DNA from: Nitrososphaerales archaeon
GTDB lineage: Archaea; Thermoproteota; Nitrososphaeria; Nitrososphaerales; UBA213
DNA: 64,000 nucleotides
Direction of reading: 5' to 3'
Assembly: GCA_965197925.1 (NCBI GenBank)
Contig: CBDAOC010000020.1
Span: 544,001 to 608,000, forward strand
The translations under genes were made by a program, and so were the position numbers. Position 1 is the first letter of the stretch. Each line of letters opens with the position of its first letter. Below are positions 1-45,776 of the stretch, piece after piece. Below the pieces are notes generated by a model, which worked only from the letters and a program-made list of their open reading frames with translations, searched no databases and had not been told where the DNA came from.

Positions 1-153
1 AGTTCGAACTCTTCCCATAGATCGTCTGGTATATGCCATATGGTCGGCATGCTCTTTTTCTTTGATTTTCTCACAAATTTAGCTAGAGAGAACAGATCTA
101 GATCTGTTTCGGTATAAACAATCAGGCCGTGATGTTAATTTTCGGATAAGCTC
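1..153 (-). mobile_element. IS5-family element, left end plus transposase N-terminus (runs off the window)
   Basis: Minus strand 74->1 reads VRKSKKKSMPTIWHIPDDLWEEFE, an IS5-type N-terminal motif not in the ORF track. Terminal sequence GAGCTTATCCGAAAATTA at 153->136 is flanked by TA. A near-identical end occurs at 4401 and a diverged one at 49547. Confidence 0.75.
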
Positions 154-515
154 TAAGTGATTAATAGACTTGTCGGTTATTTGAACTTCAGGAAAAAATA
201 AATCATGCCTAATCTGACTGGTACTAATATCCTGATTGGAAGGATACAGAGCATTATATGTTGCGATCATTATGAGCAAAATTCTTGGAATTACTTGAAC
301 TATTTAAGATAGTCATCCTAATGATTTTATTGTCTAAAAGTGATATTGTTGAATAAAGCAAAAGTCTAATTGATTGGTGCTCTAGATTGAGAGTGTATGA
401 TCCTAGGATAATTTTATTAGTATTTTTGTCAACATGTATTCAATTTGATATAATGGAGAAATGATTGTTAATTTGTAAATTCTTCAGTTTTATGATCATT
501 TCTGCTGAATCACAA

Positions 516-28499: not shown

Positions 28500-31373
28500 A
28501 TGACTAGCAACAATATCTTTTCTACATTTGCAAGACCGTTACAAAGAGCCATACAGGAAAGGGGATTTCTCAACCCTACAGATCCCCAATTAAGAGCTAT
28601 TCCATTACTACTGGAAGGAAGAAACTTGCTTTTGGTTTCCCCTACGGGAACCGGAAAAACGGAAGCGGCGTTTCTCCCGATTCTCAATATATTATATTCG
28701 GAGCAGGAAAAAATTCATGGTATAAAGGCAATATTCATCACTCCACTTAGGGCCCTGAACAGAGATCTACTTGAAAGATTGCAGTGGTGGTGCAAGTATC
28801 TGGATATAAAAATTGCTCTAAGGCATGGTGATACAGATGTGAAGGATAGGGGAAGGCAAGCTTTGGTACCACCAGAAATCTTGATAACAACTCCGGAAAC
28901 CTTACAAGCGATACTTCCAGGTTTTCTGATGCAGAGACATTTGATGAAGGTTAGGTTTGTAATTATCGATGAAGTTCATGAGCTGGCCGATGATAAACGA
29001 GGAAGTCAACTTGCATTAGCATTGGAGAGGCTTAGAGAACTTGTGCATGAAGATTTTCATGTCATAGGTTTATCAGCTACTATAGGTACACCGGAAAAGG
29101 TAGCGAACTTTCTAGTGGGTAATGATAAACCCTGTGAAGTTGTTAAGGTCCCGGTGGCTAGATGTATGCAGTTGGAGGTTGTTTATCCTGAAGCAGCCCC
29201 AGTCGATCATAAGCTTGCAACAAAACTTTTGACATTCCCTGAAGCTGCTGCAAGGCTTAGAATAATTAGGGAACTTGTACAGAAGCACCGCTCAGTCCTA
29301 ATCTTCACGAATACCAGGAGTGAAGCAGAAATTCTAGCTAATAGATTCAGGATCTGGAACATAGACTGTCCTATAGGTCTTCACCATGGATCACTATCTA
29401 AGCCCACGAGGGTAAATACGGAGATTCAACTCAAGGAAGGAAAGCTTCATGGTGTAATATGTACAAGCTCGCTTGAAATGGGTATTGATATAGGTTCGCT
29501 TGAAATGGTTATTCAATATAACTCCCCACGCCAAGTCACACGGCTTATGCAAAGAGTTGGAAGGAGCGGTCATACGGCAGCCCGGACAGCCAAGGGTGTC
29601 ATAATTACTCAGGATTCCGAAGATACACTTGAATCCATGGTAGTTGCAAGAAGGGCATATGAAGAGTTGTTAGAGCCAGTATCCATTCCTGATATGCCCT
29701 TGGATGTACTTGCACATCAAATTGCGGGTCTCCTTCTACACAGCAAAGAGTGGGTTCTTGACGACGTTCTTCAGCTGGTAAGGAGAGCTTATCCATATGC
29801 TGCCTTGAAGATGGATGATCTGATAAAAGTTTCAGAATACATGAATTCACGCTTTCCTAGGACTGCATGGCTATCCAGTGATAACAAGTATATCAAGAGG
29901 CCCATAAATCCTAAACAACTGTACAAGTATTATTTTGAAAATCTTTCTATGATACCGGAAGAAAAGCATTACCTTGTTTTGAAGGAAGATGAGACTCCAA
30001 TCGGTGTTCTGGATGAAGCGTTCGTTGCAGAGCATGGGGAGATAGGTACAAAGTTTGTGGAAGGTGGTTCCGTTTGGAAAATAATTCAAGTTTATAATGA
30101 CAGAATTTACGTTACTCCCGAGGATGATCCAACAGGAGCAATACCTAGCTGGGTTGGAGAGGAAATTCCTATTCCATTTGAAATTGCTCAGGAAGTAGGG
30201 ATGATTAGAGGTAAGGTCGAGAATGACCTTTTGGAACAAATAACCATGAGTCAGATAACACAAGAGATCTGTGACAAATACCCCGCCAAAAGGAAAACTG
30301 TTGAAAGAGCATTATCTGAAATCAAGGAACAAGTGGAGAGAAGATTGTCTATACCCACGGACAAGAGTATCACCATTGAGAATTGGGATTATTATTTGAT
30401 AATGAATTGTTGCTTTGGTCATTTGGTGAATAGAACCCTTAGTAAATTACTCGCCCATAGGCTTTCGGAAAAAGTAGGTAGTGCTGTTGAAGTGCAACAA
30501 GATGCCTTCAGAATCGTCATCAAGGGCGCATCAATTGATATCGATGAACTTGAAACATTATTACGTGAGCTTGTAAAGGAAGATATCAAAGAGCTATTCA
30601 TTGGCGCGTTAACCCGGACTGGAACTTTCAAGCGAAGAATTTTACATGTAGCGAAGAAGTTCGGAGCAATTGCAAAAACGGCTGACTTATCAAGTATCAG
30701 CCTGGGTAACATAATAGAAGGTTTTAGGGACACGGCAATATTTGAGGAAGCTGTAAGAACGGTCTTAAGGCTGGATTCTGACCTTGAGGGTACAGCAAAA
30801 GTATTGGAATTGATAGATAGTGGAGAAATTAAAATCGTTATTCTGGATAATAAAGACCAACTATCACCGCTATCCAGGATTGGTATGGAGGAAATGGGAA
30901 GACATTCTGATCTTATCCCTCCTCAGAGATTGCAAAAAATACTGTTAGAGTCCACAAAGGCCAGATTACTTTCTGAAGCAAGAACCTTGGTTTGTACTCA
31001 ATGCTGGGATCATGTTCGTACCAATTCAATTAAGGAATTAGCTAAGGATCTCAAATGCCATATCTGTACATCTACCAGTGTAGGCCTAACTGAAGAAACA
31101 GAACAGAGATGCATTTTACTCTGTGAGAAGATGCATTCCAATCCTTCGATTCTCCCAAAGAACTATGGGAGGCTACATAAAACTCTCATAAGATCAGCCG
31201 GACTTGCTACTAGGCATGGTTTTCTAAGTGCCATTGTCCTTGCAGGAAAAAATATTCCAGTGTCTGATGGAGAAAAGATCTTGGAAAATGTAAAACACTT
31301 TAATGATACGATGGTAGAATTGATCATGAAGGCTGAACGTCGTGCCTTAAAGAGACGATATTTTGGATCCTAG
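28500..31373 (+). CDS. lhr: Lhr-family SF2 (DEAH) helicase with C-terminal Cys cluster
   Basis: PTGTGKT, PLRALNRD, TTPETL, DEVHE, GLSAT, HHGSLS, QRVGRSGH, PLDVLAHQI, SMIPEE, PSWVGE, and CTQC..CHIC near the C-terminus. Confidence 0.95.
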   Translation: MTSNNIFSTFARPLQRAIQERGFLNPTDPQLRAIPLLLEGRNLLLVSPTGTGKTEAAFLPILNILYSEQEKIHGIKAIFITPLRALNRDLLERLQWWCKYLDIKIALRHGDTDVKDRGRQALVPPEILITTPETLQAILPGFLMQRHLMKVRFVIIDEVHELADDKRGSQLALALERLRELVHEDFHVIGLSATIGTPEKVANFLVGNDKPCEVVKVPVARCMQLEVVYPEAAPVDHKLATKLLTFPEAAARLRIIRELVQKHRSVLIFTNTRSEAEILANRFRIWNIDCPIGLHHGSLSKPTRVNTEIQLKEGKLHGVICTSSLEMGIDIGSLEMVIQYNSPRQVTRLMQRVGRSGHTAARTAKGVIITQDSEDTLESMVVARRAYEELLEPVSIPDMPLDVLAHQIAGLLLHSKEWVLDDVLQLVRRAYPYAALKMDDLIKVSEYMNSRFPRTAWLSSDNKYIKRPINPKQLYKYYFENLSMIPEEKHYLVLKEDETPIGVLDEAFVAEHGEIGTKFVEGGSVWKIIQVYNDRIYVTPEDDPTGAIPSWVGEEIPIPFEIAQEVGMIRGKVENDLLEQITMSQITQEICDKYPAKRKTVERALSEIKEQVERRLSIPTDKSITIENWDYYLIMNCCFGHLVNRTLSKLLAHRLSEKVGSAVEVQQDAFRIVIKGASIDIDELETLLRELVKEDIKELFIGALTRTGTFKRRILHVAKKFGAIAKTADLSSISLGNIIEGFRDTAIFEEAVRTVLRLDSDLEGTAKVLELIDSGEIKIVILDNKDQLSPLSRIGMEEMGRHSDLIPPQRLQKILLESTKARLLSEARTLVCTQCWDHVRTNSIKELAKDLKCHICTSTSVGLTEETEQRCILLCEKMHSNPSILPKNYGRLHKTLIRSAGLATRHGFLSAIVLAGKNIPVSDGEKILENVKHFNDTMVELIMKAERRALKRRYFGS

Positions 31374-31942
31374 TCAACTGATTCTTCAATCGGAGTTTTT
31401 TCTGAAAGAATTAGGCTCAGCAGTGTTTTCTGATCTATTTCGGCCTTTGCTCGCCAACCGATAATTATTATATCCTTTTCTTCGACAAAATATCCTCTTC
31501 TTATGAACCTATCAAGGTTAAGCTGAACTTTCCACTTCGGGAATTTTTCACGCAAGACTTGTTCCAGATCCTTCCGCCTGACCTTACCTTGTCTGGGAAT
31601 CAAGTAAGCTATACCCGCAGCCAGTACCGCTATGTCATCTATCCTTAACCCTAGTGTACCCGTCTCAATTCTAGATAATGGTTCTTTGATTACAATGAAG
31701 AATCTTGCCGAATCCAGTACCTCAGATTCTGATTGATTTTCCTTTTCCTCTACAGAGACCGTCTTAACAGATAGTCCTAACGTCGCGATTTGAGTATTTA
31801 ATATGTCAACATATTTCTGATAATCTTTGCCCAGTACCTTCCGCAGCTCCCAACCCTTTACTCCAGGATACCTGTGTTTCTGAAGAACCAACATCTGAAA
31901 AGCCCTTCCAACTTTTCCACTAACTTGAGCTTCCTCAGACAT
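31370..31942 (-). CDS. Putative KITE subunit (ScpB/Nse1/Nse3-like tandem winged helix)
   Basis: 190 aa with two wHTH-like halves (WELRKVLG..ILNTQIATLGLSV; RKDLEQVL..LDRFIRRGYF..IGWRAKAEI). Last gene of an overlapping operon with the kleisin-like and SMC genes. The fold is inferred. Confidence 0.65.
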   Translation of the reverse strand: MSEEAQVSGKVGRAFQMLVLQKHRYPGVKGWELRKVLGKDYQKYVDILNTQIATLGLSVKTVSVEEKENQSESEVLDSARFFIVIKEPLSRIETGTLGLRIDDIAVLAAGIAYLIPRQGKVRRKDLEQVLREKFPKWKVQLNLDRFIRRGYFVEEKDIIIIGWRAKAEIDQKTLLSLILSEKTPIEESVD

Positions 31943-32753
31943 TTACTCTACTCTCCATGGTCCTTTGCCACGATTCATTATCAAATGTAACAGCTATGGA
32001 TCTTGGCAACATATCTTCAGGTGGTGACCTCCTTTGCTCATTTGGAATTATGTAGATCAATTCCTTTAGCGGATCTACCTCCATGCCCGCATATCCCTCA
32101 GAGACTAGAAAACTTGTGAGATAGGCTCTCCGTACAGAATCTTCATATGATTTGGATCCGATAAATTCCCAGTAAGGAATCTTATTCTCAATAAACTCGG
32201 TCCGTTTTTGCAATAGCTCATCCCAAAGGATTTGTAAACCAGCATCAAATTCCTCCAAACTCAAGACTTCCATTTTTATCAATTCTTCAACTGTGAGGTA
32301 TTCTGTTTCGATTAAAGTGTCCCCATTAAGTTTCCCAATTCTGTCCTTAATCAGTGGTAGCCTATTCCAATAATCAAGTGCTTGTATAATCTTGTCGGGT
32401 GATATTTGATTAAGGCTTACAATCGGATGAATGCTCTGCATTAGTATAGATGCCAATGTTTCTTCTGATATCATCTTTAGCTTCAATTCCACAAGAAACG
32501 GATCAACGTGAAGTGTTGAAGCCTTGTGTTTTATCCATTCTGCTTGTAACCTAATAAGTCCGGTTATTCCCCTAAGGGCTTCAATATCAAGCAACAACTC
32601 GTCAAGCTTCTTCCACTGGGGTAGGTAATTCTTCAGGGTTCTGAGAGAGGAATTCACATCAATATTAAACGGATCAAATCCTTCCTTCTCTACTGCCTTA
32701 CAGAGTTCTATTATCCTTATGATTTCTTCATAATTTAACTTCTTGTCGTCCAT
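31935..32753 (-). CDS. Putative kleisin (ScpA/Nse4-like)
   Basis: N-terminal DPFNIDV...LIRLQAEWI and C-terminal VRRAYLTSFLVSEGYAGMEVDPLKELIYI resemble the conserved ends of archaeal ScpA. Confidence 0.75.
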   Translation of the reverse strand: MDDKKLNYEEIIRIIELCKAVEKEGFDPFNIDVNSSLRTLKNYLPQWKKLDELLLDIEALRGITGLIRLQAEWIKHKASTLHVDPFLVELKLKMISEETLASILMQSIHPIVSLNQISPDKIIQALDYWNRLPLIKDRIGKLNGDTLIETEYLTVEELIKMEVLSLEEFDAGLQILWDELLQKRTEFIENKIPYWEFIGSKSYEDSVRRAYLTSFLVSEGYAGMEVDPLKELIYIIPNEQRRSPPEDMLPRSIAVTFDNESWQRTMESRVNV

Positions 32754-32754
32754 T

Positions 32755-34770
32755 CTAACTCACCATCTTTATTGAAGATTTACTGTAAACATTTTGAACA
32801 AATATCAAATGAACATCACTCTCCATTACTGTCAGTTGTGAAGGAGTTATCACCAAGTATTGACTTTCCGGCTTGGATCTGATATGTGAAAAGATCATCT
32901 TCAGTAAGGCCTCTCTATTTTTAGGATCCAGATGAACATCAAATTCATCAACCGCTCTAAATGGTGATAGTACACGTTGCTGCAATGAAAGCAAAAATGC
33001 CATTACTGCTACTCCCCTCTCACCTCCGCTTTGTGTATAAGCATCAAGGACCACCATTGGCGAGCCTCTAAAACCCACGAGCAGTTCAAGTCCAGCCTTT
33101 TCTATATCACCCATTTCGACGAGCCTAACTATACCTGTTCCACTTGTCCTTGAAAGTAATTCTTGATAGACAGGGCTAATCTGTTCTATAAGGTTCTCTA
33201 ATGTTTGCTTCCACACCTTCTTCCTTTCTTCAAGGTTGCTCATGGTTTTATTCTTGTTCTCTACGAGTACTCTGAGCTTATCTTCAAACTCTACATAAGA
33301 AGCAGAGAATTTGCTGTAAATTGTCTCTGTATCTTCGGCGATTTCGCCCAAACTCTTGATATGAGCATCGATAATCTTAATCTCTTCTGATACTTCTGTG
33401 GGAGAACGATCCGTTTGTATTCTTGGAATTGTGTTTTCGGCTTGTGGAATCACTAAATTCAGCTGCTCTTGATTTTCCTTTATGGACCTCTCCATGTCGG
33501 TGATTTCATGTTCAATATTCTTGCGTTTGACACTCAGCAAAGCCTCATCCACCTTAAGTGAAACAAACTTACTAATAGTAGATTGTGTGTGTTCTTCTCC
33601 CTTTGTTATGTCATCATGAATTGACTTTATTTCATCATCATAGTACTTTATCTTAGCACTAAGTTCGTTATTTTTTGAAGATAAGGAATCAATTGTGTAT
33701 CTTATTTCATCAATCTTTGCACTTAACACCCTTGTACCATCCTCATCACTGAATGCAAGTGCCTCTTCTGGAATGCTAATTGCAGAGTTCAAAAATCCTT
33801 TGGTTTCTTTGAATGTCTCAATTCTCGCCAAAATATTAGATCTCTCCCTCTCTTGTCTGATCATCGCAAAGTATAATTTTCTCTGCTCAATTTGAGCGGC
33901 CTCGAGACTCGTATTTGTGTTCATTGCAAGCTCTTGAGTCCTCTGTATTTTTTCCATAACATCGTTAAGGGTATTTCTTCTTTTTTCTATTCTTTCCCTA
34001 AGTGAGTGCAAGACATCCTCAAGCTTTATTACTTGAACCCATCCAAGCTCTCCACCAAGAAAATCCTTTCGTTGCAACAATTCTTTTCTCTTAAGAAACC
34101 TTTCATGCATTTCTTTCCAGTATTCAAGTGTTTGACCAGCATTTTCAAGAATCTTTGATAATCCTGTCTCTTCTGTAATCAATGACGATAGTTTTTGTTG
34201 AGATTCGAATATTCCTTCCCTATACTCCTCAAATCCAACTGCTTCCTCAACCATCTTGAGTTTTTCCTCCGTTGAGGTTATGCTGAATTCTTCTACCATT
34301 CCTTGATGCATAATTATCAAAAGATTATCAGGATTTATTCCGAACTGCCTGAATAATCTTGAAACCTCGCTTCTGCTCATATCTCTGTAATCTGCTTCAT
34401 ACCAGTAGGTGCCGTTCGACTTTAGATACCTGGAAAGCATGAATGTATCAGATTTGCTAAATGGAATTGGTCGTTTCCCGTTTTGTATTTTGTTATTGAA
34501 TAATAAACTAATCCTTGCAATATCCTTTCCTCTTCTTATCAAATCACTCAGCTTTCTGGATCTTTCAGTGTAAGCCTGACCTAATGCTACCGATATTCCC
34601 ATCAATATTGTAGATTTTCCAGCACCATTTGGTCCTGTTATAACATTAATACCTTGTTTAAGTGGTATTCTACCATATTCATAACTCATAAAGTTTTCAA
34701 GAATGATCTCTGATATGATGGGTAGTGTCTGCGAATATCGTTGAGAGATTACACGTTTCTCAGCTTCCAA
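32755..34770 (-). CDS. Short SMC-family ATPase with Smc5/6-type head motifs, no recognisable hinge
   Basis: LENFMSY, Walker A GPNGAGKST, Q-loop MHQG, coiled coil, signature QSGGER, Walker B/D-loop PFRAVDEFDVHLD, QYLVITP. Only 671 aa. Confidence 0.92.
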   Translation of the reverse strand: MEAEKRVISQRYSQTLPIISEIILENFMSYEYGRIPLKQGINVITGPNGAGKSTILMGISVALGQAYTERSRKLSDLIRRGKDIARISLLFNNKIQNGKRPIPFSKSDTFMLSRYLKSNGTYWYEADYRDMSRSEVSRLFRQFGINPDNLLIIMHQGMVEEFSITSTEEKLKMVEEAVGFEEYREGIFESQQKLSSLITEETGLSKILENAGQTLEYWKEMHERFLKRKELLQRKDFLGGELGWVQVIKLEDVLHSLRERIEKRRNTLNDVMEKIQRTQELAMNTNTSLEAAQIEQRKLYFAMIRQERERSNILARIETFKETKGFLNSAISIPEEALAFSDEDGTRVLSAKIDEIRYTIDSLSSKNNELSAKIKYYDDEIKSIHDDITKGEEHTQSTISKFVSLKVDEALLSVKRKNIEHEITDMERSIKENQEQLNLVIPQAENTIPRIQTDRSPTEVSEEIKIIDAHIKSLGEIAEDTETIYSKFSASYVEFEDKLRVLVENKNKTMSNLEERKKVWKQTLENLIEQISPVYQELLSRTSGTGIVRLVEMGDIEKAGLELLVGFRGSPMVVLDAYTQSGGERGVAVMAFLLSLQQRVLSPFRAVDEFDVHLDPKNREALLKMIFSHIRSKPESQYLVITPSQLTVMESDVHLIFVQNVYSKSSIKMVS

Positions 34771-34827
34771 GACAAATGTCTCTACTTCTCACTCTTTAAT
34801 AAATTCAAGGCAACTCGCATACGAACA

Positions 34828-34859
34828 TAGCACTGGAAAGAACTAGCACTGGAAAGAAC
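34828..34859. repeat. 16-bp tandem duplication (TAGCACTGGAAAGAAC x2) in the divergent promoter region
   Basis: Exact adjacent copies between the SMC start and the 34887 gene. Confidence 0.9.
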
Positions 34860-34886
34860 TTAAACCTGTGAACAAATAGACTTGAC

Positions 34887-35576
34887 GTGGTCTTAGCAGC
34901 AAAGATCTTTCTCATCAAGAATAGAACCGATTTGGAAGACATCCTAATCAAAGTAAGAGATCATAAGAGTAAAGAAATATTTGAACGTGGTGATAAAACT
35001 ATCGAGCTTCTAACCGAAGTAAGGGATCTGAACATGGCAGAAGATTCTTTTAACGGAGTCTTCGCACAGGATCAGATAATTTACATAGGACATCATGGTG
35101 AAATGATCCCTACTCCCAGAACCATGGTGGCTCCATTTACCTTTAACAAGGTAAATGACATCATACTATTGACAGTTCTGGAAAAAAAGAGAAGGGCAAA
35201 CTTGGTAGCCAATAGTCTAAGTAAAGTGGTATACCTTACTACTGGGCAAATAGTTGAAGCGAAGATATCACCTGAAACTTTGCAAAAGTTCCATCAAGAA
35301 AATTTTGACGACACAAAAATAATATTCTTTGATGATGTTGATATACCAAATATAAACAAACTCTCTCTTTACGGTTCTGCACTTGGTAATACATCTCTTT
35401 ATACGGATTACCTCAGCCATGGCAAATTATGGTACACGGTTATAAGTTCTAAGAAATATGGTCACATTGCAGGGATAACGAGGAATTGTGGAGTTACAGT
35501 TTTTAGCAAGGTAGAACAGTCGGAGTTCATTAATTATATCAAGAGTGAGATCTTTCCCCTGATAAGTGTTTCATAA
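34887..35576 (+). CDS. Uncharacterised alpha/beta protein, head-to-head with the SMC operon
   Basis: Clean 229-aa ORF with TTTAAA-like CTTAAA about 25 nt upstream. No family recognised. Confidence 0.8.
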   Translation: MVLAAKIFLIKNRTDLEDILIKVRDHKSKEIFERGDKTIELLTEVRDLNMAEDSFNGVFAQDQIIYIGHHGEMIPTPRTMVAPFTFNKVNDIILLTVLEKKRRANLVANSLSKVVYLTTGQIVEAKISPETLQKFHQENFDDTKIIFFDDVDIPNINKLSLYGSALGNTSLYTDYLSHGKLWYTVISSKKYGHIAGITRNCGVTVFSKVEQSEFINYIKSEIFPLISVS

Positions 35577-36088
35577 ACTAGATAAAATATTCATGCAACC
35601 ATTCTACAAATATTTTATAGGTCCCTCATTCATACTACCCTTGCAGGATTAGGTTCTGCATGCTGTATAGAGATTGTTGCTTTTCTTATACATGGAATGT
35701 AATATTTGTCCCCTTAACGAATAAAGTATATCTTTGGCAAATTTATCATACCTATCTTATTTCATAAGTAGACATTAACATGTATAGCATGATCTCTTGG
35801 TGTTATTCTTAATACAATGGGCTAAAATCTAGGTAAGTTGTATTGCTGACTTGATTACAAGCATTGTTCTATTTGCCCAAGGATAATCATCCTAAGCATA
35901 AGGTTATCCAATTGACCTATTAATGATCTAACTGATAAGACAATCGTGGTCCAATCAATGATGCAGATTTCAGTAAATCTTGGATTCGTAATAACTTTTT
36001 AGTACGAAAATCATCGCATAATGTAGAATGCAAGTCAAAAGTGCTATATGCTAGTTTACATAATTATCCTCGATCAGAAGAGACGTAT

Positions 36089-36958
36089 ATGATCAAGATA
36101 ATTCCGAATGAACCAGCGTTGTTACTTAAGACAGGAAGAGAAAAAACCCTCATCATCCCAGATCTCCATCTCGGTTTTGAAAAGGAGCTTGCTGAAAGAG
36201 GAATTGCCTATCCCTCGCAGACAGGGAAAATATTCAAAAGGTTAAAGGATTTACTGGATGAACTAAAACCAGATCGCATGATCTTCTTGGGAGATATCAA
36301 GCACGGAACATCAATGATTCTGCAAAATGAGTGGAGGGAAATTCCAGGATTCTTTGAAAAATTGCTTAGATACGTGGATAAAATACAGGTGATTCCAGGT
36401 AATCATGATGGCCATCTGGAAAAACTGATTCCGAAGAAGATAGATCTTGCGCCTGTAAGAGGATTAACCTTGCAAGATGGCAGAAAAAAGATATCGCTTG
36501 TTCATGGGCATGCCTGGCCTATGCAAGAATCATTCAATTGTGACGAGTTGATAATGGCACATCATCATTTTACGATAATGTTGAGGGACTCATCCGGCCT
36601 AAGATCTTTTGAACCCATTTGGGTAATAGCTAGATGGAATAAGGCCAAAATGGCTACATCTTACCTTAAAGCAAGGGGGGTGAGAACCCGTACCGATCCT
36701 CTTAAACTCTTCAAAAAGACCTTTGGCATAAATATCAAAAGTCCCAGGATAGTAGTCATGCCCACTTTTAACAAAATGCTGGGAGGGATTGCCATAAATC
36801 AAAAAGAGCCTGATAAGAAGTATCTGGGCCCGATATTCAAGTCGGGTTCCATAGATATGAGTAATTCAGAGCTCTATCTCTTAGATGGCACCTATCTTGG
36901 AATTTTATCCAGGAACAAAGATTTCGGGGGTAAAGTTACTTCAATAGGCGTTCTATAG
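36089..36958 (+). CDS. Calcineurin-like metallophosphoesterase (archaeal SbcD-related, Lhr-associated type)
   Basis: DLHLG, GDIKH, GNHDG, HGH, AHHH, VMPTFN, YLLDGTYLG. Start placed at MIKIIPNEP. Confidence 0.9.
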   Translation: MIKIIPNEPALLLKTGREKTLIIPDLHLGFEKELAERGIAYPSQTGKIFKRLKDLLDELKPDRMIFLGDIKHGTSMILQNEWREIPGFFEKLLRYVDKIQVIPGNHDGHLEKLIPKKIDLAPVRGLTLQDGRKKISLVHGHAWPMQESFNCDELIMAHHHFTIMLRDSSGLRSFEPIWVIARWNKAKMATSYLKARGVRTRTDPLKLFKKTFGINIKSPRIVVMPTFNKMLGGIAINQKEPDKKYLGPIFKSGSIDMSNSELYLLDGTYLGILSRNKDFGGKVTSIGVL

Positions 36959-37791: not shown

Positions 37792-40700
37792 ATGCCTGCA
37801 AAACCAACAAACACCGATGACACGACGGATGTTCCCGAGAAGATCGTGGGCATACTCTCGCTAATCGGTGCAACCCCGGAATACAAAACGATCCAGGAAA
37901 AATGGTGGGTAGCGTACAAGAATCGTGGTTGGAGGGGTTACAGTTTTCGCCGGGGGAATGACAAGGACTCCCTGGTGCCGATATTTCTCTTTGAGCATGA
38001 CGTAAAGACGGCAAGGGAGACAAGGGATGTTACATCAGAGATTTCCAACTGTATCGCAATCTTTCATCTAAAGTCCGAATACAGCATCTTCTTCAAATCC
38101 GGCGGCGAGAGCACCCTCTTCAAGCTTGACAGCGATGACGCGTACGAACACATCCTTGCGGCCCTGAATTTGGCCGATTATGCCTCTGCATCCACCAGAA
38201 TGGAGATGAGGATCCGCATCAAAAGGACGATAAATAATATTCCGACCACGACCCAGAACTTTAACAACAAGGGCGTATTCTCCACCCATTATCTAAAGAA
38301 CCGGCTCTTTACGGACATGGATATCAACGTCGATGATTTTAGGGACGTGTGGGAGGGAAACGCAAAAAAATCTCTTGCCTGTCTTGGGTGGACCAGTTTG
38401 GAAGGTGAAAACGGCGTGTACCGCTCAAGCACGACCAGGGCAGTATCAATCGTTGTTGCAGACCATGGGCAGGACTTTGGCGTACGGAGAAATGCAGGTG
38501 ATGTCGCTCCAAGTTACCGCGCCGTTGCAGAGCTGAGGAACACGCCGTGGGTGATGCTGACAAACGGTACCGTATGGCGGCTTTACACCACCAGGGTGTC
38601 GGCATCAACCACCAATTATTTTGAGATAAACCTAGCAGTGCAGAAGGAGATAATTCTGCGCTATCTTGCCGTAATGTTTGGCGCTGCATCATACCTGGTC
38701 CAAAAAGGCAAGACCGGCATTGACACGATATTTGATGAGGGGAAAAACTACGTTCAGGAGCTGGAGGATAATCTTGCAGACAGGATACTGAGACCGGACG
38801 GCGTTTTTGTTGATATGGTGAAAGGCGTCCTTGGTCACGACATGAGAAAACAGTTCGGAGCGGGAGAACTGGCCACTGCAAAGGAGATCGCGCTGAAGAT
38901 CATGTATCGCGTGTGGTTCTTGCTGTATGCAGAATCGCGTGACCTGCTGCCCGTCAGGGACGAGAAATACAAACCGCTATCCCTGATGTCACTGCGGAAC
39001 AGACTCGACCATATGGATGACAACCCCGACGGGACAAAATGCTGGGATGATGTCCTAGGACTGTTTGATGGAGTAAGGAACGGCAGTCCAGAACACAACC
39101 TGCCGCAGTACAACGGCGAACTCTTCAAGCACCTGCCGGAGATTGACGGCATCCGCATGAAAAACAGGTTTTTTGTACGCGCACTGCGAGGGCTGATTGA
39201 AAAGGACGGCGAACCGATGGACTATGCCAGTCTGGGCGTAAGACATCTCGGATACATCTACGAAACCCTGATGGAGTTTGCAGTGAGGCAGGCAGAAAAA
39301 GACATCATGCTGCTTGAAGACAAGGACGGGGTCAGGGAGGTGGAATCAAAGGCCGAATCCACATACTCATACAAGAAGAACGACCTGTACATCATTTCCA
39401 AGAAGGGATCCATGTCAAGAAAATCTTCCGGAACCTACTACACCCCGGAAAAGATAGTAGAGTTTCTTGTGATGCGCGGGCTGGAGCCAATCTTCAAGGA
39501 GCGCGAGGAGCTGATTGCGGACGATCTAAAGAAGTACAAGCGGGACCGGTCCCCGGAGAATTATCGCGGATGCATGGACAGGCTGCTTGACATCCAGGTG
39601 CTTGACCCCTCCATGGGAAGCGGTCACTTTCTTGTCGAGGCGCTAAACAGGATTACGCAGTGGGCAACAGGAATACTGGAGAGGCATCCGGAACATCCCC
39701 TTCTCCGCGAAATTGAGGATGACAGACGGTTGATCATCTCAACACAAAAGGAAGGGGGAGTCGTGATAAACCCCGGCCTGCTCACGCATGACGTTCTCCT
39801 GAAGCGCAGAATAATGAAGCGGTGCATCTTCGGGGTTGACGTCAACCCGCTTGCGGTAGAGCTTGCAAGGGTGTCTTTGTGGCTTGACTCGTTTGCGATA
39901 GGCGTGCCGTTGACGTACGTGAACCATCACATCAAGGTTGGTGATTCGACCATTGGCGCGTGGCGCAGGGATGTTGAAGATGCACGAAACCGGTCACTTG
40001 ACGACTGGGTGGAGACCACCAATAGGGCCGGGGAGATCATTGCACGCGTAAGCAATAGTGCGGATGTAACCATTGACCAGGTTCGCTCCAGCGAGGACGC
40101 GCACAATGAATATGAGAAGGTAATGAACTCATACAAAACCGGACTTGACGTATATTCTGCAACACAAATCGACGGCACGGTAATTCCAAAAAAAGCGAGC
40201 AAGAATCCTGCAGGCTACATTCGCAGATTTGTAGGGCAGAAGGCGAATGACGGGGACATGCGGCAGACGCTCACAAGAACACAAGAACTTCGAAAAAAGT
40301 ACAGATTTTTTCACTGGGAGCTTGAGATGATGGACGCATTCACGGATTCCAGGCACGGTTTTGATCTGGTGGTGGGAAATCCGCCATGGGACAAGGTAAA
40401 GCCGTATGTTGATGAGTTTTTCTCGCAGTATTATCCGGCATTCAAATCACTGAACACAAAGACGAAAAAGACTGCCAAAATGAATAAGCTTCTAAGGGAT
40501 CCTAAAATCAAAACAGGTTATGAAGAGTATCTCCTATCCTTCAAGGAAAAGTCCGCATTCTACAGGACGTATGATCTACAGGGCAAAGGAGACAGGGATC
40601 TGTGGCAGCTGGTATTCGAGCGAATGCTAGGTCTTGTAGGCAAGGGTGGCATGATATCAGTGCTAATCCCGTCACAGATTCTTGCAAATGACGGTTCGAC

Positions 40701-41112
40701 AGAAATGCGAAAACGGATTCTTGACCTGGATATCCAGCAGTTGTATGTCTTTGAGAACAGGAAAAAGATATTTCCAATAGACAGCAGATATAGATTCCTG
40801 CTTTTGAGCGTACGCAACATACCAGGCCCGGATACGTTTCAGGCCGGATTCTACCTCCACCATCTGTCGTCACTTGAAACAGATAAAACAGAGGGAAAAT
40901 TTTATGCCATGTCCAAGCAGACGATACGCAAAACATCCCCGGACACACTACAGATTCCGGAGGTTGGAGACAGTGAACTCGACATATTGAACAGCCTATC
41001 CGGTAATGAGAGTCTGACCTCCGAATCCGATGATGGTTGGGAGGCTGCATTCTCAAGTGGATTTCATAAAGGAAACGATGCACATCTTCTAAAAGAATGT
41101 GGTGGGGGCTAA
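37792..41112 (+). CDS. Eco57I/Type IIG-like N6-adenine DNA methyltransferase, N-terminal and catalytic part
   Basis: LTNGTVWRLY, YNGELF, LGYIYETL, RKSSGTYYTP, motif I VLDPSMGSGHFL, FGVDVNPLAVELA, FFHWELE, motif IV VVGNPPW. Confidence 0.9.
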   Translation: MPAKPTNTDDTTDVPEKIVGILSLIGATPEYKTIQEKWWVAYKNRGWRGYSFRRGNDKDSLVPIFLFEHDVKTARETRDVTSEISNCIAIFHLKSEYSIFFKSGGESTLFKLDSDDAYEHILAALNLADYASASTRMEMRIRIKRTINNIPTTTQNFNNKGVFSTHYLKNRLFTDMDINVDDFRDVWEGNAKKSLACLGWTSLEGENGVYRSSTTRAVSIVVADHGQDFGVRRNAGDVAPSYRAVAELRNTPWVMLTNGTVWRLYTTRVSASTTNYFEINLAVQKEIILRYLAVMFGAASYLVQKGKTGIDTIFDEGKNYVQELEDNLADRILRPDGVFVDMVKGVLGHDMRKQFGAGELATAKEIALKIMYRVWFLLYAESRDLLPVRDEKYKPLSLMSLRNRLDHMDDNPDGTKCWDDVLGLFDGVRNGSPEHNLPQYNGELFKHLPEIDGIRMKNRFFVRALRGLIEKDGEPMDYASLGVRHLGYIYETLMEFAVRQAEKDIMLLEDKDGVREVESKAESTYSYKKNDLYIISKKGSMSRKSSGTYYTPEKIVEFLVMRGLEPIFKEREELIADDLKKYKRDRSPENYRGCMDRLLDIQVLDPSMGSGHFLVEALNRITQWATGILERHPEHPLLREIEDDRRLIISTQKEGGVVINPGLLTHDVLLKRRIMKRCIFGVDVNPLAVELARVSLWLDSFAIGVPLTYVNHHIKVGDSTIGAWRRDVEDARNRSLDDWVETTNRAGEIIARVSNSADVTIDQVRSSEDAHNEYEKVMNSYKTGLDVYSATQIDGTVIPKKASKNPAGYIRRFVGQKANDGDMRQTLTRTQELRKKYRFFHWELEMMDAFTDSRHGFDLVVGNPPWDKVKPYVDEFFSQYYPAFKSLNTKTKKTAKMNKLLRDPKIKTGYEEYLLSFKEKSAFYRTYDLQGKGDRDLWQLVFERMLGLVGKGGMISVLIPSQILANDGSTEMRKRILDLDIQQLYVFENRKKIFPIDSRYRFLLLSVRNIPGPDTFQAGFYLHHLSSLETDKTEGKFYAMSKQTIRKTSPDTLQIPEVGDSELDILNSLSGNESLTSESDDGWEAAFSSGFHKGNDAHLLKECGGG

Positions 41113-41869
41113 TTGGCCTGTACTGGAAGGCGGGAATATTCACCAGTTTAATCATGATTTTGCAAAACCCATGTTTACTGCTGATAGCTCCGCCGGACTG
41201 CGAAGGGAGGAGAACAGACGGGTGTACAAAAACAGTTGCGGGAATTTTTATCATTCATTCAGACTTGCATTTCGTGACATATCTGGCCCGACCAACATGC
41301 GGTCAATCATCGCATCCATAATTCCGCCACAGAGATTCTTCACAGATTCACTACGTGTTATTGTATTAACCCGGAATGGAAACTTTGAGCACGGCAACGA
41401 ATACAACAAAAAGACGGCATATCTATGTGGAATCCTAAACTCCATGACGTTTGATTTTGTAGCACGCTCCAAACTGCAAATGCATACAATGGTAATTATC
41501 AAAGCCCTTCCAATTCCGGACCGTACCCGCCATGATGACATTGCAACTCTTGCAGCAAAACTCTCCGTGGGCTCTGACGAGTTTGAGGGGTTTGCAGAGT
41601 CAATGAGGGTGGAGAACATGCCGCTGACACCGTATGAGCGAATCCACGCTACCGCCAGGCTTGACGCACTGGTGGCGCACGCATATCACCTGTCCGGGGA
41701 AGAGTACCGGACAATACTGGAATCGTTCAAGTTTGAAGAGAACCCCGCATTGCTTGAGGCAGATACCGCCGACTTTAACGACAACAGGACGTTGCGGGCA
41801 TTCTACGGGGAGGTGCGCAAACTTGCACCCGGTTATTATGATAGCTTAAAGGAGAATGAGCCCAAATGA
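41099..41869 (+). CDS. C-terminal target-recognition part of the same methyltransferase (+1 frame)
   Basis: PVLEGGNIHQF, RLAFRDISGPTNMRSII, GILNSMTFDF, RLDALVAHAYHL. Deleting one G of G5 at 41104..41108 fuses it to the upstream ORF. Confidence 0.85.
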   Translation: MVGANWPVLEGGNIHQFNHDFAKPMFTADSSAGLRREENRRVYKNSCGNFYHSFRLAFRDISGPTNMRSIIASIIPPQRFFTDSLRVIVLTRNGNFEHGNEYNKKTAYLCGILNSMTFDFVARSKLQMHTMVIIKALPIPDRTRHDDIATLAAKLSVGSDEFEGFAESMRVENMPLTPYERIHATARLDALVAHAYHLSGEEYRTILESFKFEENPALLEADTADFNDNRTLRAFYGEVRKLAPGYYDSLKENEPK

Positions 41870-44800
41870 GCAGCTTTGACAAGAGAAAGGCAGAACCCGA
41901 CGTAATCGACAACAGGGAGGCCAGCATGGCCGATGTGCTCAACGTCAACCTGCAGAGAATCGACTCCCTTGACATATCGTCTGGATATTTTGAGGTGGGC
42001 GGGTATGGCCTTGTGCGGAAGGCACTGGAAGAGGCTGTAAAAGACAGCTCCTTTGCATTCAGGCTTTTGGTGGGCAAGGACGCAATAAGGCCTCCCAGGT
42101 TTGATACGTTTGAGCAATACCGCGAATATGCGGAGACGGAGAGGACGGGGCAGACTGAATCGATAAAGTCCGGCCTTGACGGAAACGAGCTCAACAAGAA
42201 CAACATGGACGACGTCACAAGCCTCATCAGGCTCCTAGGACGGGAGAACGTGCAGGTCAGGCACAACGACCTCCGGTTCAACCATGCAAAATGCTACATA
42301 CTTGGCCAGGAGGGAGCGGTGGTCGGATCCAGCAACTTTACGCGCTCCGGGCTGCTGGGAAACGACGAACTAAACACCGGGGTATACAGCACCACCACGT
42401 GGGAGAAGGTAAAGGCGTGGTACGAGCGGATGTGGAACAAGGCAGAGGACGCCAAGGACGACATACTGCAGGCACTGGAACAGTCAAAGTTTGGGGCACC
42501 GCCGGAACCATACGACCTCTACCTGAAGATCCTCTTTGAAAAGTACAAGCGGATTCTGACTGCAATGGCAGAAAAGGACACCACTGCCGCCAAGACACTG
42601 GCAAAATTCCAGACAGATGCGGTCTCAACCCTGCTCCAGATAATAGACGAGTACGGGGGGGCAGTACTTGCAGACTCTACAGGGCTTGGCAAGACGCACG
42701 TAGGACTGGAGGTGATCCGGCAGAAGATGCTTGGGGAGCGCAAAAAGGTGCTGCTCATTGCACCGGCGCAGGTGAGGGACACCGTATGGGCTGGCAAGCT
42801 GGAGACGGCAGGAATCACGGTAGGGAAGATCGGCATGGAGGAGCTCGGCCGGGAGGATTTTGACGTGTACAGGTACAAAAAGTACGACTTTGTGGTAATC
42901 GACGAGAGCCAGAACTTTCGCTCAAAGACCGCGAATCGCAGGCTGAACCTCATGAAGATCATGAGTCTGGGCAGAAGAAAGCAGGCGTTGCTGCTCTCCG
43001 CCACGCCAATCAACAACTCCATAATGGACCTGTACTACCAGATCTCGATAATAACCGGCGGGAGGGACGACTACTTTACGGAGATCGGGATCCCCGACCT
43101 GTACCAGTACATGAGAAAGGCCGCAAACCACGCCATCATGAACACCGGACTTGAAAAGATCCAGCAGCTTCTGGACGCCGTGATGGTCAGGCGAACCAGG
43201 ACATTCATCAGGGAGGTGTATCCCGACGGCAGGATCAACGACAGGCCGATAACGTTTCCAAAGAGGGAGTACGCCCCAATCAGGTACGGGATAACCGAGC
43301 TTTTTGGAAACGTCTACGAGGATCTGTTTGACACGATAAAGTCGCTGCACATGGTGCCGTACGGCATTGAGAAATACAACACGACGCTTACATCGGAGGA
43401 GAGGCAAAAAGCACGGGTACTGGCGCACCTTCAGGTAATCCTGTTATTGAAGCGGTTTGAGAGCAGCGTAAAGGCCGTCGGCATCAGCATAGACAAGAAG
43501 ATAGCGCTGTTTGAGTACTTTGAAAAAATTCTCGTTGAAAACAAGATAGTATCGCCCAAACAGCTCAACAAAATAATGCTGAGATGGAACGCCAGGGACA
43601 TGGACGGCGACGACATTGACGGGGAGGAGAGCCGGGACAGGTTCTTTATGGAAGCCATTAAGAGGCTGAATGTCCAGGATGCCGGAGGCTATGACGTTGA
43701 ATCGATGAGAAAAGACACGGCATTCGACCTGGCACATCTCAGAAGATACAGGGATGCCGTGGCCAGGATACTCCCGTTTGACAAGAAGATAGACGCCGTC
43801 TCCGAGATGATACGCCGTGACGGGGCACTGGAGAGGGAAAGCAAAAAGGTGCTCATATTCACCGAATATACGGACACGGCCGCATACATCAAGGAAATGC
43901 TCCATAAAAAATTCCCTGACAAGAAAATACTCCTGATAACAGGCAGCGTCAAAAAAGAGACCCGCCAGCAGATCATGCGGGAGTTTTCACCCAAGGCAAA
44001 CACCGAAGAGGACGAGGACGTGCCGGAAAACGAGGCCGACATACTGGTGTCCACCGAGGTGCTCGCAGAGGGACAGAACCTTCAGGACTGCAACTATGTA
44101 ATCAATTATGATCTGCCGTGGAATCCGATGAGGATAGTCCAGAGGATAGGGAGGGTGGACAGGCTCACAAGCACGTATGAGACCGTCCGTTCCAGGGAAT
44201 GTTTTCCGGACACAAAGCTGGACGAACTGCTCACGCTGGTTGGCGGCCTGATGGACAAGATAGAGGACATAAACAACACCGTCGGACTGGACACGGACCT
44301 GCTAGGCCAGGAGGCATCACCAAAGCAGTTCAACGAAGTAACGCACAGGAGAATACTGGCATTCGCGAGGGGAGACGGTGTAGATGCGGTAGCCGGTGAC
44401 ATTGAGCGTGAATCCGACCTAATGCCTGCAAAATCCCCGATAAACGAGATCAGCCGGCACATCAGGAATACCGGAATCGCAACAATGGAGGAATTTACAA
44501 TGGGCAGGAGAAGCGGAAAACATGGAGAGGGGCAAAAGGTTGCGCTGGCATACGTGCGGGAAAAGCCCCAAAGAAGGTTTTACTCCGTCATGTACGACTA
44601 TGCCAAGCGAGAGGCAACGGTCGTAAACGACATGGAGGTAATCGAGCTTGCAATGTGCAGGGAGGGCACGCCAAGACACCTTCCCATGGACGGTATCGGG
44701 AACCGCGAATCGTTTGAAGAACTGATTGAGATAGACGCGGTTGCGCGGGAGGCAGTTGCAACGCAGGACAACCGTGATCACAGTATTGCCCGCGAGATCA

Positions 44801-45174: not shown

Positions 45175-45776
45175 CATTGCACCGTCACTTTTGATTTTTA
45201 CTGGTTTTCAATTCGCTGGAAACATTAGCCATGGTACCAGTGGGCTCTTAGGTTAACGTGTTATAATTCTCCGTGTTGTGTCGAATGATAGGCACTTGAT
45301 TTCTGAACTGAACTTTTCTTGTTTTTTAGATACTGTTTAATGGTCGGTATATTATTTCCTTTGACTTGCATTCCAGTCATCTGGATCAATACGGGCATCA
45401 ATAAGTCGTCTCCATACTTGCCATTGCTCTTTTTGGTCTTTTGGCAGATGTACTAGTCTTCATATCCAATATCAATTAGATTAGATGGTGTACGTAGATT
45501 AGGAGAGGTGTCATAGTTAGTGGGTTCTGTCAAGATATGGGACGTTAGTAAAGATCTTCCAAGTGTAAAATGTCGAGACATGAGACTTTTAGATCGCTAA
45601 TACGTTAGAATATTGAGGAAAAAAGAAGAGGTGTTAGGATTTAGTTCCTAAGAGGAATTGATTCTAACATTCATAGACAAAAGTTACTTTTCTAGGAGTT
45701 GTGGAAGCTGACTGTTGAAACTGTGCCTGTTACCTTTCTATGTATTAACTTATGTAAATATGACCCATAAAATAGT

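Follow-up and report, generated by a model that had tools for sequence, protein, structure and literature searches.

A three-gene SMC5/6-related operon of a Nitrososphaerales archaeon encoding a predicted hinge-less SMC

The window, i.e. the whole stretch of 64,000 nucleotides of Nitrososphaerales DNA that was analysed, carries a minus-strand operon for an SMC ATPase with heads of the Smc5/6 type, an Nse4-type kleisin and a predicted kite subunit of the Nse1/Nse3 fold. The trio is already published. An "SMC5/6-related archaeal SMC" was described and listed by Yoshinaga & Inagaki 2021 (PMC8665677), and operons of an SMC, an Nse4-related kleisin and an Nse1/3-like kite appear in the text of the preprint by van Hooff, Raas, Tromer & Eme (bioRxiv 10.1101/2024.01.07.573240). 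The window holds an ordinary member of this set, with nothing different in kind. As far as the published texts go, it shares with them the family, the three subunits in one operon and the coexistence with a canonical SMC. The taxa also are those of the published set, namely Thaumarchaeota, Bathyarchaeota, Verstraetearchaeota, Crenarchaeota and a few euryarchaea. What is gained here concerns architecture and genomic context, the system itself being in print. As a member of the published complex, the trio likely works as an ATP-driven DNA clamp in DNA repair, a reading to which we assign a probability of about 0.6.

Among SMC complexes, eukaryotic Smc5/6 is the one understood least, and the hinge is the textbook element of SMC dimerisation and DNA gating. 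The closest prokaryotic relatives of Smc5/6 are a natural place to seek its ancestral activity, and their common archaeal form is predicted to be hinge-less, yet keeps an Nse4-type kleisin and an Nse1/3-type kite. Small, presumably homodimeric and made of three proteins, the archaeal complex should be simple to produce and assay. Such assays could show for which of the activities of Smc5/6 (DNA clamping, entrapment, loop extrusion) a hinge is required.

The operon and its conservation

The genes of the region, with the evidence on which each description rests, are the following.

28500..31373, plus strand: Lhr-type helicase, 957 aa (Pfam DEAD, DEAD_assoc, WH_Lhr)
31370..31942, minus strand: kite subunit, 190 aa, predicted tandem winged-helix (AlphaFold2 model and Foldseek)
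31935..32753, minus strand: Nse4-like kleisin, 272 aa (Pfam Nse4_C; family profile against PDB)
32755..34770, minus strand: SMC5/6-related ATPase, 671 aa, TTG start (open reading frame; Pfam SMC_N 1.7e-33)
34771..34886, no strand: divergent intergenic region (read from sequence)
34887..35576, plus strand: conserved 229-aa protein with no family match (divergent from the SMC gene)
36041..36958, plus strand: calcineurin-like phosphoesterase, SbcD-related/PdeM-like, 305 aa (Pfam Metallophos 5e-10)

The three minus-strand open reading frames of 671, 272 and 190 aa lie exactly where a preliminary description of this DNA had placed them, and they abut or overlap as it had said: a single nucleotide separates the SMC stop from the kleisin start, and 8 nt are shared by the kleisin and kite genes. 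No gene beyond these three is found in the operon in the list of open reading frames. Within the divergent intergenic region, a TATA-like stretch rich in AT lies 25-33 nt ahead of the SMC start and is a putative promoter; positions 34829-34860 form a perfect tandem duplication of 16 nt.

The genes are real and conserved, and so is the operon that they form. Synteny in other archaea, a check that the preliminary description had named, is kept. Of the related loci, 63 extend 1500 nt or more past the SMC gene on its downstream side. Both partners are present in 60 of these, and SMC, kleisin and kite genes are contiguous and in the same order in 55. In L071, L072 and L078, three euryarchaeal loci, the SMC gene has neither a kleisin nor a kite gene next to it. 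Overall, the trio occurs in 202 of the 401 genomes of the phylum that were sampled. Two RNA libraries of a single study contain contigs that agree, with 0 differences, with parts of the SMC gene (33355-34579) and of the kleisin gene (32414-32658). They hint at expression and cannot show transcription, because DNA can occur in such libraries. The absence of RNA-library contigs over the Lhr, kite, 229-aa and phosphoesterase genes is uninformative on expression.

The same genome encodes a separate canonical Smc (1197 aa) and a ScpB whose gene adjoins a weakly ScpA-like open reading frame, which answers the question, raised in the preliminary description, of whether a canonical smc-scpAB set exists alongside the trio. 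It also has a NurA-HerA-Mre11-Rad50 operon and an SbcCD-like pair. A scan of the genome with SMC_N detected one SMC5/6-type gene, the others followed up being canonical Smc, Rad50 and SbcC-like; this count excludes five weaker matches in short open frames (239-604 aa).

Kinship of the three subunits with Smc5/6

Judged by sequence, the SMC has heads of the Smc5/6 type. In a single-sequence search of the PDB, yeast Smc5 (5.2e-32) precedes Pyrococcus Smc (4e-23) and Rad50 (~1e-7). With the family profile, the 10 highest-scoring distinct PDB sequences (154-136 bits) are Smc5 or Smc6 without exception. Foldseek likewise places Smc5/6 chains on top for the predicted SMC structure, Rad50 also being present.

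A tree of the heads (79 rows, 369 columns) was rooted on canonical SMC because head profiles found no C-terminal head half in the Rad50/SbcC-like proteins of the genome. The tree separates canonical SMC from the Smc5/6 side with 100/100 support. On the latter side, a clade supported at 100/98 unites the archaeal family (100/91), with the window's SMC inside, and a group holding all 27 eukaryotic rows (98/80). The eukaryotic rows are in turn divided into an Smc6 clade of named rows and an Smc5 clade anchored by P0308. Both the tree and the profile search thus bear out the view of the preliminary description that the head is nearer to Smc5 and Smc6 than to canonical Smc or Rad50. TLX99447.1 (P0061), which is 49% identical to the window's SMC (E 3.8e-193), is among the 80 SMC5/6-related homologues in the supplement of Yoshinaga & Inagaki 2021 (PMC8665677).

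Other assignments of the SMC were tried and rejected: canonical Smc (TIGR02169, 164.7 bits for a cut-off of 729.4), Rad50 (best model 67.3 bits for a cut-off of 1000; 0 cysteines), ASRP/ClsN (NF045487, 50.3 bits for a cut-off of 300; no CxxC) and Arcadin-4 (NF053563, 38.5 bits for a cut-off of 860).

By its profile matches, the 272-aa protein is an Nse4-type kleisin with an Nse4-type C-terminal winged helix. Pfam Nse4_C (PF08743) matches residues 192-267 with an E-value of 7.4e-6, at 26.6 bits just above the cut-off of 26, and also matches 15 of 22 relatives. The single sequence gave chance-level matches in the PDB and a family profile was needed. This profile has four PDB matches, all of them Nse4/EID3, including human EID3 (4.9e-6) and yeast Nse4. 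The earlier identification of this protein as a kleisin was hence right, while its description as ScpA-like was not, the C-terminal domain being Nse4_C and not ScpA.

The 190-aa protein is predicted to be a kite of the Nse1/Nse3 fold. The five best Foldseek matches of its AlphaFold2 model (pLDDT 82.5) are Nse1 and Nse3/MAGE-G1 chains (7dg2_C at 1.3e-5; 5hvq chains; 7dg2_A with TMq 0.64), above ScpB, MukE and JetB; the weaker matches include ScpB 6juv_B at 9.5e-4 and JetB 8dk1_E at 2.5e-3. This agrees with the preliminary description, which took the tandem winged-helix protein to be a KITE subunit. Pfam MAGE weakly matches 4 of 24 relatives. The kite family profile gave nothing meaningful against PDB sequences (best E 0.26), so that the kinship is visible by predicted fold alone.

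The trio resembles the eukaryotic Smc5/6 holocomplex (Smc5, Smc6 and Nse1-6; e.g. PDB 7qcd, 7tve, 8i4x, 9lwi) in the head motifs QSGGER, PFRxVDE and ITP, in the Nse4-type kleisin and the Nse1/Nse3-type kite fold, and in having its best sequence and fold similarity there. It differs in that one SMC gene stands in place of the Smc5/Smc6 pair and one kite gene in place of Nse1 plus Nse3. Moreover, the window's kite is devoid of cysteine and therefore has no RING. With prokaryotic Smc-ScpAB it would share the plan of a paired SMC, one kleisin and a paired kite, all encoded together; ScpB is also among the fold matches of the kite. However, the trio has no match to the hinge model PF06470 or to the ScpA and ScpB models PF02616 and PF04079.

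Predicted arm architecture and the tip

The predicted parts of the SMC protein map as follows.

34237..34719, minus strand: N-terminal head half, residues 18-178, with Walker A GPNGAGKST and Q-loop Q156 (model; invariant columns)
33751..34230, minus strand: outgoing arm helix, residues 181-340, a single unbroken helix (AlphaFold2 model)
33736..33750, minus strand: apex turn, residues 341-345 (SDEDG), at the position of a hinge or hook (AlphaFold2 model)
33151..33735, minus strand: returning arm, residues 346-540 (AlphaFold2 model)
32800..33141, minus strand: C-terminal head half, residues 544-657, with signature QSGGER, Walker B FRAVDE, and ITP (alignment to yeast Smc5)

The head motifs are intact, as previously noticed: QSGGER, SPFRAVDEFDVHLD and QYLVITP are present in the translation and align with yeast Smc5. 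The ITP stands at what we take to be the H-loop position of canonical SMC. Invariant columns of the family alignment include G46-S53 and Q156 in the N-terminal head, and 579-585 and 602-620 in the C-terminal head.

The AlphaFold2 model (mean pLDDT 78.3, 61-66 at the tip; pTM 0.47) consists of two head halves and a helical hairpin of ~140 residues per strand. At an estimated 0.15 nm per residue, the arm would measure roughly 20 nm. Confidence along the outgoing helix is mostly ~85-91, dropping to 66-79 at residues 321-340. The short break in the coiled coil that was noted earlier is seen in the model as the five-residue turn 341-345, flanked by helices 181-340 and 346-447, with no other break at the apex. 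The returning arm is broken at 448-456 and 475-480. The first of these breaks holds conserved residues, R450 being invariant and T453 and R455 nearly so in the family alignment. Residues 321-380, i.e. the tip, are the least conserved part of this alignment.

It is predicted that the window's SMC has no hinge and no zinc hook. The protein contains 0 cysteines and therefore no CxxC hook, in keeping with the preliminary description. As to the hinge, 275 residues separate the two heads, compared with 639-676 in Smc5/6; the corresponding length is 146-303 residues across the short family and 784-805 in canonical SMC. None of the 120 best relatives matches Pfam SMC_hinge. Eukaryotic Smc5 (P0308) and Smc6 (P0300) are also without a PF06470 match, even at E up to 10. 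Because the Pfam null is weak alone, the claim that there is no hinge rests on length and on the model, which is of moderate confidence.

This hinge-less short form is predicted to be family-wide and the common archaeal form. The 120 best relatives measure 598-686 aa, and 47 full-length short representatives sampled for the tree measure 548-685 aa. Among the 150 matches listed from 401 genomes, no open frame exceeds 762 aa. Nested among the short forms is a Bathyarchaeota subclade of long relatives (982-1047 aa) that carry a tip insert of ~375 residues centred on a conserved CxxC; this insert maps to the apex turn of the window's SMC. At the one long-form locus examined, the kleisin, kite and nuclease genes are not adjacent. 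No long close relative came up among proteins of more than 1175 aa, where the matches were canonical hinge-bearing SMCs at 87 bits or less, with PF06470 in 44 of 45. The missing hinge, the short arms and the CxxC apex go unmentioned in the main texts of Yoshinaga & Inagaki 2021 and van Hooff et al.

We tentatively suggest, as an idea that falls short of probable, that the tip is an exchangeable module in the archaeal Smc5/6 lineage. Most members, the window's among them, would be hinge-less with arms of ~20 nm, one subclade would bear long arms with the CxxC insert and rare members would keep a hinge. The complex would act as a head-proximal clamp within a conserved repair module together with Lhr, the PdeM-like phosphoesterase and the 229-aa protein. 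If this is true, this SMC class can do its core job without a hinge, and the archaeal complex is a minimal natural system in which to test what SMC hinges are for.

Conserved neighbours and probable role

The Lhr-type helicase (NCBIfam PRK13767, ATP-dependent helicase of the Lhr type, 5.6e-157) is encoded by a gene that converges on the kite gene, the two ends overlapping by 4 nt. It lies in this convergent position behind the kite gene in 35 of the 46 loci with room for it; the other 11, where it is absent, include all 3 Bathyarchaeia and 1 Hecatellales. In 49 of the 57 loci where there is room for it, the 229-aa gene lies upstream in divergent orientation. It also adjoins the SMC gene in the Methanosarcinales locus L072, which is devoid of kleisin and kite, and in L073, a locus too short for its partners to be judged. 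Its product has no match in Pfam, NCBIfam, PADLOC or the PDB-profile search. A protein atlas assigns it to unnamed clusters of its own and gives a weak lead to RdgC (0.78, below the evidence level of the tool). The phosphoesterase, which scores on TIGR00024 (6e-26) and TIGR04123 (PdeM; 1.2e-16) under the cut-off of each, is upstream in 41 of 51 loci with room, and here lies 1.3 kb upstream of the SMC gene on the other strand. A Type IIG restriction-methylase gene, in an island of higher GC content, starts at 37792.

Lhr and the other neighbours are not mentioned in the main texts of the two publications on the family cited above. The company of an Lhr helicase, a PdeM/SbcD-like phosphoesterase and the 229-aa protein suggests a function on DNA that is damaged or branched, and DNA repair is the most likely role of the trio. 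Of the two roles put forward in the preliminary description, repair and the restriction of mobile DNA, the neighbours favour the former. Common descent within a single phylum may account in part for the conservation of the neighbourhood. The three neighbouring proteins are concrete candidates for functional partners.

A mechanism can be proposed by analogy with the solved structures of Smc5/6 and Smc-ScpAB. Two copies of the single SMC would pair via their ATP-engaged heads. A single kleisin would connect them, binding one head at its neck and the other at its cap, and a kite dimer would sit on the kleisin, helping to grip DNA atop the heads. Because the arm tips appear to lack a joining hinge, this would be a head-proximal DNA clamp rather than a large hinge-closed ring.

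Bacterial and archaeal chromosomes are organised by complexes of an SMC, a kleisin and a kite, and the trio might be a second chromosome-organising complex, compact and condensin- or coalescin-like, that shapes or segregates the chromosome instead of repairing it. The family is indeed widespread in the phylum, and many archaea have been proposed to carry two complete SMC complexes, according to the text of van Hooff et al. (bioRxiv 10.1101/2024.01.07.573240). We nevertheless consider this role unlikely. The genome already has a canonical Smc, a ScpB and the weakly ScpA-like frame for that task, hinge-less arms of ~20 nm seem ill-suited to the formation of large loops, the helicase and the phosphoesterase conserved beside the trio belong to repair types, and the ASRP/ClsN model fails by the wide gap given above.

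A little less likely still is defence against extrachromosomal DNA, i.e. restriction of plasmids or viruses in the manner of bacterial Wadjet or of eukaryotic Smc5/6 in its silencing of viral episomes. Smc5/6 is reported to restrict viruses (PMC9458440), the architecture is the same SMC-kleisin-kite arrangement as in Wadjet JetABCD, and the kite shows some fold similarity to JetB (8dk1_E). The Type IIG gene is 3 kb away. The Lhr neighbour scores on the BREX helicase model BrxHI (2.1e-94), which is uninformative for defence since BrxHI is an Lhr-like helicase. Against this, the SMC reaches only 38.3 bits on JetC, compared with 114-154 on Smc5; kleisin and kite have 0 PADLOC matches, JetA and JetB included, and the cluster contains no JetD-like nuclease gene. 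With its conserved chromosomal context and its presence in 202 of 401 genomes, the trio looks like a core system and not a patchy defence island.

It is improbable that the trio is a Rad50-like tether of DNA ends, in which the arm tips of separate complexes meet and the upstream phosphoesterase is the nuclease partner. Rad50 is not known to use a kleisin or a kite. The window's SMC is of similar size to the hinge-less coiled-coil ABC ATPases of the Rad50/SbcC group and of the archaea-specific SMC-related proteins (ASRP: ClsN, Sph1/2; Yoshinaga et al. 2022, PMC9389158), and its long relatives share with Rad50 and ASRP the conserved apex CxxC, reminiscent of the Rad50 zinc hook. Furthermore, the SbcD-related phosphoesterase is a conserved neighbour, and Rad50 is among the fold matches of the SMC (7zr1_C, 4.8e-20). 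Unlike these proteins, however, the window's SMC has no cysteine and a variable tip, groups with Smc5/6 by its heads, and is accompanied in its operon by kleisin and kite, with no Mre11/SbcD gene inside. The genome has its own Mre11-Rad50 operon, and the long-form locus has no adjacent kleisin, kite or nuclease gene.

Half-length SMC genes can come from assembly errors, and for that reason alone an artefact was considered, namely a gene truncated, fused or mis-assembled so that this one assembly lacks the hinge. Nothing was found in its favour, and it is refuted, its probability being practically nil, by the similar lengths of the 120 best relatives and the 47 short representatives, by the absence of any frame above 762 aa among the 150 matches listed, and by a contig of 8147 bases from a DNA run that spans the whole region with 0 differences.

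The operon and the affinities of its products

The ORF listing of the window contains three tightly packed minus-strand genes, at exactly the positions reported in the preliminary description:

32755..34770, minus: SMC5/6-related ATPase (ORF, 671 aa, TTG start)
31935..32753, minus: Nse4-like kleisin (ORF, 272 aa)
31370..31942, minus: kite (ORF, 190 aa)

A single nucleotide separates the SMC stop from the kleisin start, and the kleisin and kite genes overlap by 8 nt. Contigs identical (0 differences) to the SMC and kleisin genes are present in two RNA libraries from one study, which is only a hint that these two genes are expressed.

Pfam SMC_N spans both ends of the 671-aa protein (1.7e-33). 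The head motifs quoted in the preliminary description are indeed present and match those of yeast Smc5 position by position (QSGGER, PFRAVDE and QYLVITP in the window; QSGGER, PFRVVDE and QYFLITP in yeast). The protein does not pass the NCBIfam equivalogs for canonical SMC (164.7 bits, cut-off 729.4), Rad50 (67.3, cut-off 1000), ASRP (50.3, cut-off 300) or arcadin-4 (38.5, cut-off 860). In a search of PDB sequences, yeast Smc5 ranks first (5.2e-32), followed by Pyrococcus Smc (4e-23) and Smc6 (1.4e-22), with Rad50 at about 1e-7. A profile built from 20 family members finds only Smc5 or Smc6 among its 10 best distinct PDB sequences (154-136 bits), with Smc2 (128.7 bits) and Pyrococcus Smc (107.6 bits) behind them. 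Among 1.84 billion cluster representatives, 115 proteins match at E <= 1e-30, and these are essentially the archaeal family. Next below is a set of proteins of 1000-1140 aa scoring about 120 bits; their sources name three of them Smc6, and another, P0308, is an Smc5 by its 590-bit PDB match to human Smc5.

Both head halves were excised with family profiles and used to build a tree (79 rows, 369 columns). Besides the window protein it takes in 16 canonical SMCs and 27 eukaryotic rows; the remainder are 24 of the 47 short representatives (every second one) and 11 archaeal proteins of long or intermediate size. The careful version of this tree has canonical SMC as its outgroup and a bootstrap that is not fully settled (correlation 0.974); in it, the Smc5/6 side separates from canonical SMC at 100/100. 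A 100/98 clade unites the archaeal family with a 98/80 group that contains all 27 eukaryotic rows and two long-branched archaeal ones. The eukaryotic rows form one Smc6 clade and one Smc5 clade, each at 100/100, and the window protein lies within the archaeal family clade (29 rows, 100/91), the inner branches of which are not resolved. A quick tree is consistent with this topology. The head is thus of the proposed Smc5/6 type, grouping with Smc5 and Smc6 and apart from canonical SMC.

The 272-aa protein had been described as a kleisin with ScpA-like ends. The kleisin assignment holds and the ScpA likeness does not: a Pfam search gave no ScpA match, and residues 192-267 match Nse4_C with 26.6 bits (cut-off 26; E 7.4e-6), a model also matched by 15 of 22 relatives. 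Searched against the PDB at E <= 10, the family profile returns four matches only, all Nse4, among them human EID3 (4.9e-6) and yeast Nse4 (1.6e-4).

Sequence searches with the 190-aa protein (Pfam, PDB sequences, family profile against the PDB) gave nothing useful; a weak MAGE match is found in 4 of its 24 relatives. The AlphaFold2 model (24 sequences, pLDDT 82.5) is a tandem winged helix. Foldseek places Nse1 and Nse3/MAGE-G1 chains in the first five ranks for this model (1.3e-5 to 1.7e-4; TMq 0.64 for 7dg2_A), above ScpB, MukE and JetB, in keeping with the kite first proposed. The protein has no cysteine and therefore no RING.

A predicted short arm and its variable tip

The AlphaFold2 model of the 671-aa SMC (pLDDT 78.3) is laid out as follows:

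residues 18-178: N-terminal head half
residues 181-340: outgoing arm, one helix
residues 341-345: apex turn
residues 346-540: returning arm, with breaks at 448-456 and 475-480
residues 544-657: second head half

No globular domain is present at the apex of this model, and conservation across the family alignment is lowest at the tip (residues 321-380). Pfam SMC_hinge is found in none of the best 120 relatives (598-686 aa), which is a weak argument alone since true eukaryotic Smc5 and Smc6 likewise give no match to that model. The decisive figure for a putative absence of the hinge is how many residues separate the heads: 146-303 in the short family (275 in the window protein), 639-676 in eukaryotic Smc5/6 and 784-805 in canonical SMC. 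The window SMC is modelled with a 341-345 turn in place of a hinge-sized domain, and its cysteine count of zero leaves no CxxC, both as the preliminary description had it. A short, hinge-less arm is thus predicted.

Some relatives are built differently at this point. Three Bathyarchaeota proteins of 1016-1047 aa (P0198, P0208 and P0210) have 654-665 residues separating their head halves. They group as a single clade (100/100) that branches from within the short forms, near the window protein. Pairwise alignment of a long relative with the window protein (window 1-370 with 1-348; window 357-671 with 723-1034) maps the approximately 375 extra residues exactly to the hairpin tip. At the centre of the insert is a conserved C-[DE]-[KR]-C-G-S, carried by 6 of the 14 examined proteins of long or intermediate size (the same three plus P0248, P0255 and P0359) and by 0 of 51 short representatives and none of the best 120 matches. 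To judge from its sequence, this CxxC motif looks like a Rad50-type zinc hook. At one long-form locus (L106:3968-7144) the gene lies amid metabolic genes, and kleisin and kite are not adjacent. Two other relatives retain a hinge-like middle: P0244 (982 aa), which falls within the short forms in the tree, gives a weak, full-length match to SMC_hinge (E 0.045), and P0279 (835 aa), a more distant Asgard protein outside the main clade, a clear one (4.6e-11). The long CxxC inserts and these hinge matches indicate that the tip is variable in this lineage.

Distribution and published relatives

A scan for relatives in one genome per species found 618, and 79 loci were retained, from Nitrososphaerota, Bathyarchaeia, Hecatellales, Methanomethylicia, Thermoprotei and a few Methanophagales and Methanosarcinales. 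Where at least 1500 nt are available downstream of the SMC gene, both kleisin and kite are present in 60 of 63 loci and are contiguous in the same order in 55. The three exceptions, all euryarchaeal (L071, L072 and L078, from Methanophagales and Methanosarcinales), have a short SMC without an adjacent kleisin or kite. Synteny in other archaea therefore agrees with the heads and the partners, and the overall reading of the trio as an Smc5/6-like SMC, kleisin and kite was right. Across 401 genomes sampled from the phylum, the SMC query has a match in 202 (151 of 334 in the high-quality subset). It finds no match in 56 genomes (mostly complete, about 1.6 Mb) from a family within the same order as the window; the window's genome does have a match.

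Yoshinaga and Inagaki (2021; PMC8665677) described 80 "SMC5/6-related" archaeal SMC homologues, of which the TACK group accounts for 66. TLX99447.1, listed in their supplement, is our P0061 (49% identity to the window SMC over 97% of its length), and the published list also contains RLI38935.1, of the P0198 cluster. The preprint by van Hooff et al. (10.1101/2024.01.07.573240) reports that an Nse4-related kleisin and an Nse1/3-like kite share an operon with this SMC, and that the same archaea also carry a second, canonical complex. Given the listed 49% relative and the operon of the preprint, the trio belongs to a described family; as a typical member it is itself not new. The main texts of these two papers and of PMC9389158 make no mention of an absent hinge or short arms here, nor of a hook in archaeal SMC5/6-related proteins, the preprint's supplements lying outside this search. 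It must be noted that Yoshinaga and Inagaki dropped coiled-coil columns prior to analysis (PMC8665677). Under-reported are the predicted hinge-less short arm, the long subclade with its CxxC, and the conservation of the repair-type gene neighbourhood.

Neighbouring genes and possible role

Three further genes flank the operon:

28500..31373, plus: Lhr-type helicase, convergent with the kite gene
34887..35576, plus: 229-aa protein, no family match in the libraries searched
36041..36958, plus: SbcD-related / PdeM-like phosphoesterase

At their 3' ends the kite and Lhr genes share 4 nt (31370-31373), so that the two transcription units end within each other. Of the 46 loci with room for it, 35 have a convergent Lhr homologue no more than 1.5 kb beyond the kite gene; the other 11 include all three Bathyarchaeia loci. 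A second Lhr paralogue is found upstream in 26 loci. The 229-aa gene is divergent and upstream in 49 of 57 loci, and its product is better conserved than kleisin or kite, with 46-78% identity to the window copy in 18 of 19 aligned relatives (Thermoproteota and Methanosarcinales) and 32% in the remaining one, from Thermoprotei. Indeed, in the Methanosarcinales locus L072 it adjoins the SMC gene though kleisin and kite are absent there. An upstream phosphoesterase gene is present in 41 of 51 loci.

Elsewhere, the same genome encodes NurA-HerA-Mre11-Rad50, an SbcCD-like pair and a canonical Smc, and a ScpB gene adjoins a weakly ScpA-like ORF; the separate canonical smc-scpAB whose presence had been raised earlier is thus found in this form. 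PADLOC returns no match for kleisin or kite, and generic ATPase matches only for the SMC. Together, the conserved neighbours, the separate canonical and repair systems and the PADLOC result would favour a role for the trio in repair or junction processing, ahead of defence or chromosome folding.

The divergent intergenic region between the SMC and 229-aa genes measures 116 nt. Within it a 16-nt unit is perfectly repeated in tandem (34829-34860); this duplication may be a regulator-binding site. A TATA-like AT-rich stretch lies 25-33 nt 5' of the SMC start.

Farther along the plus strand, 37792-41112 encodes a 1106-aa Type IIG restriction-methyltransferase (PADLOC 1.5e-75). This gene opens a stretch of raised G+C (about 38000-46000; 0.47-0.53 against about 0.37-0.40 around it) that is probably an acquired island.
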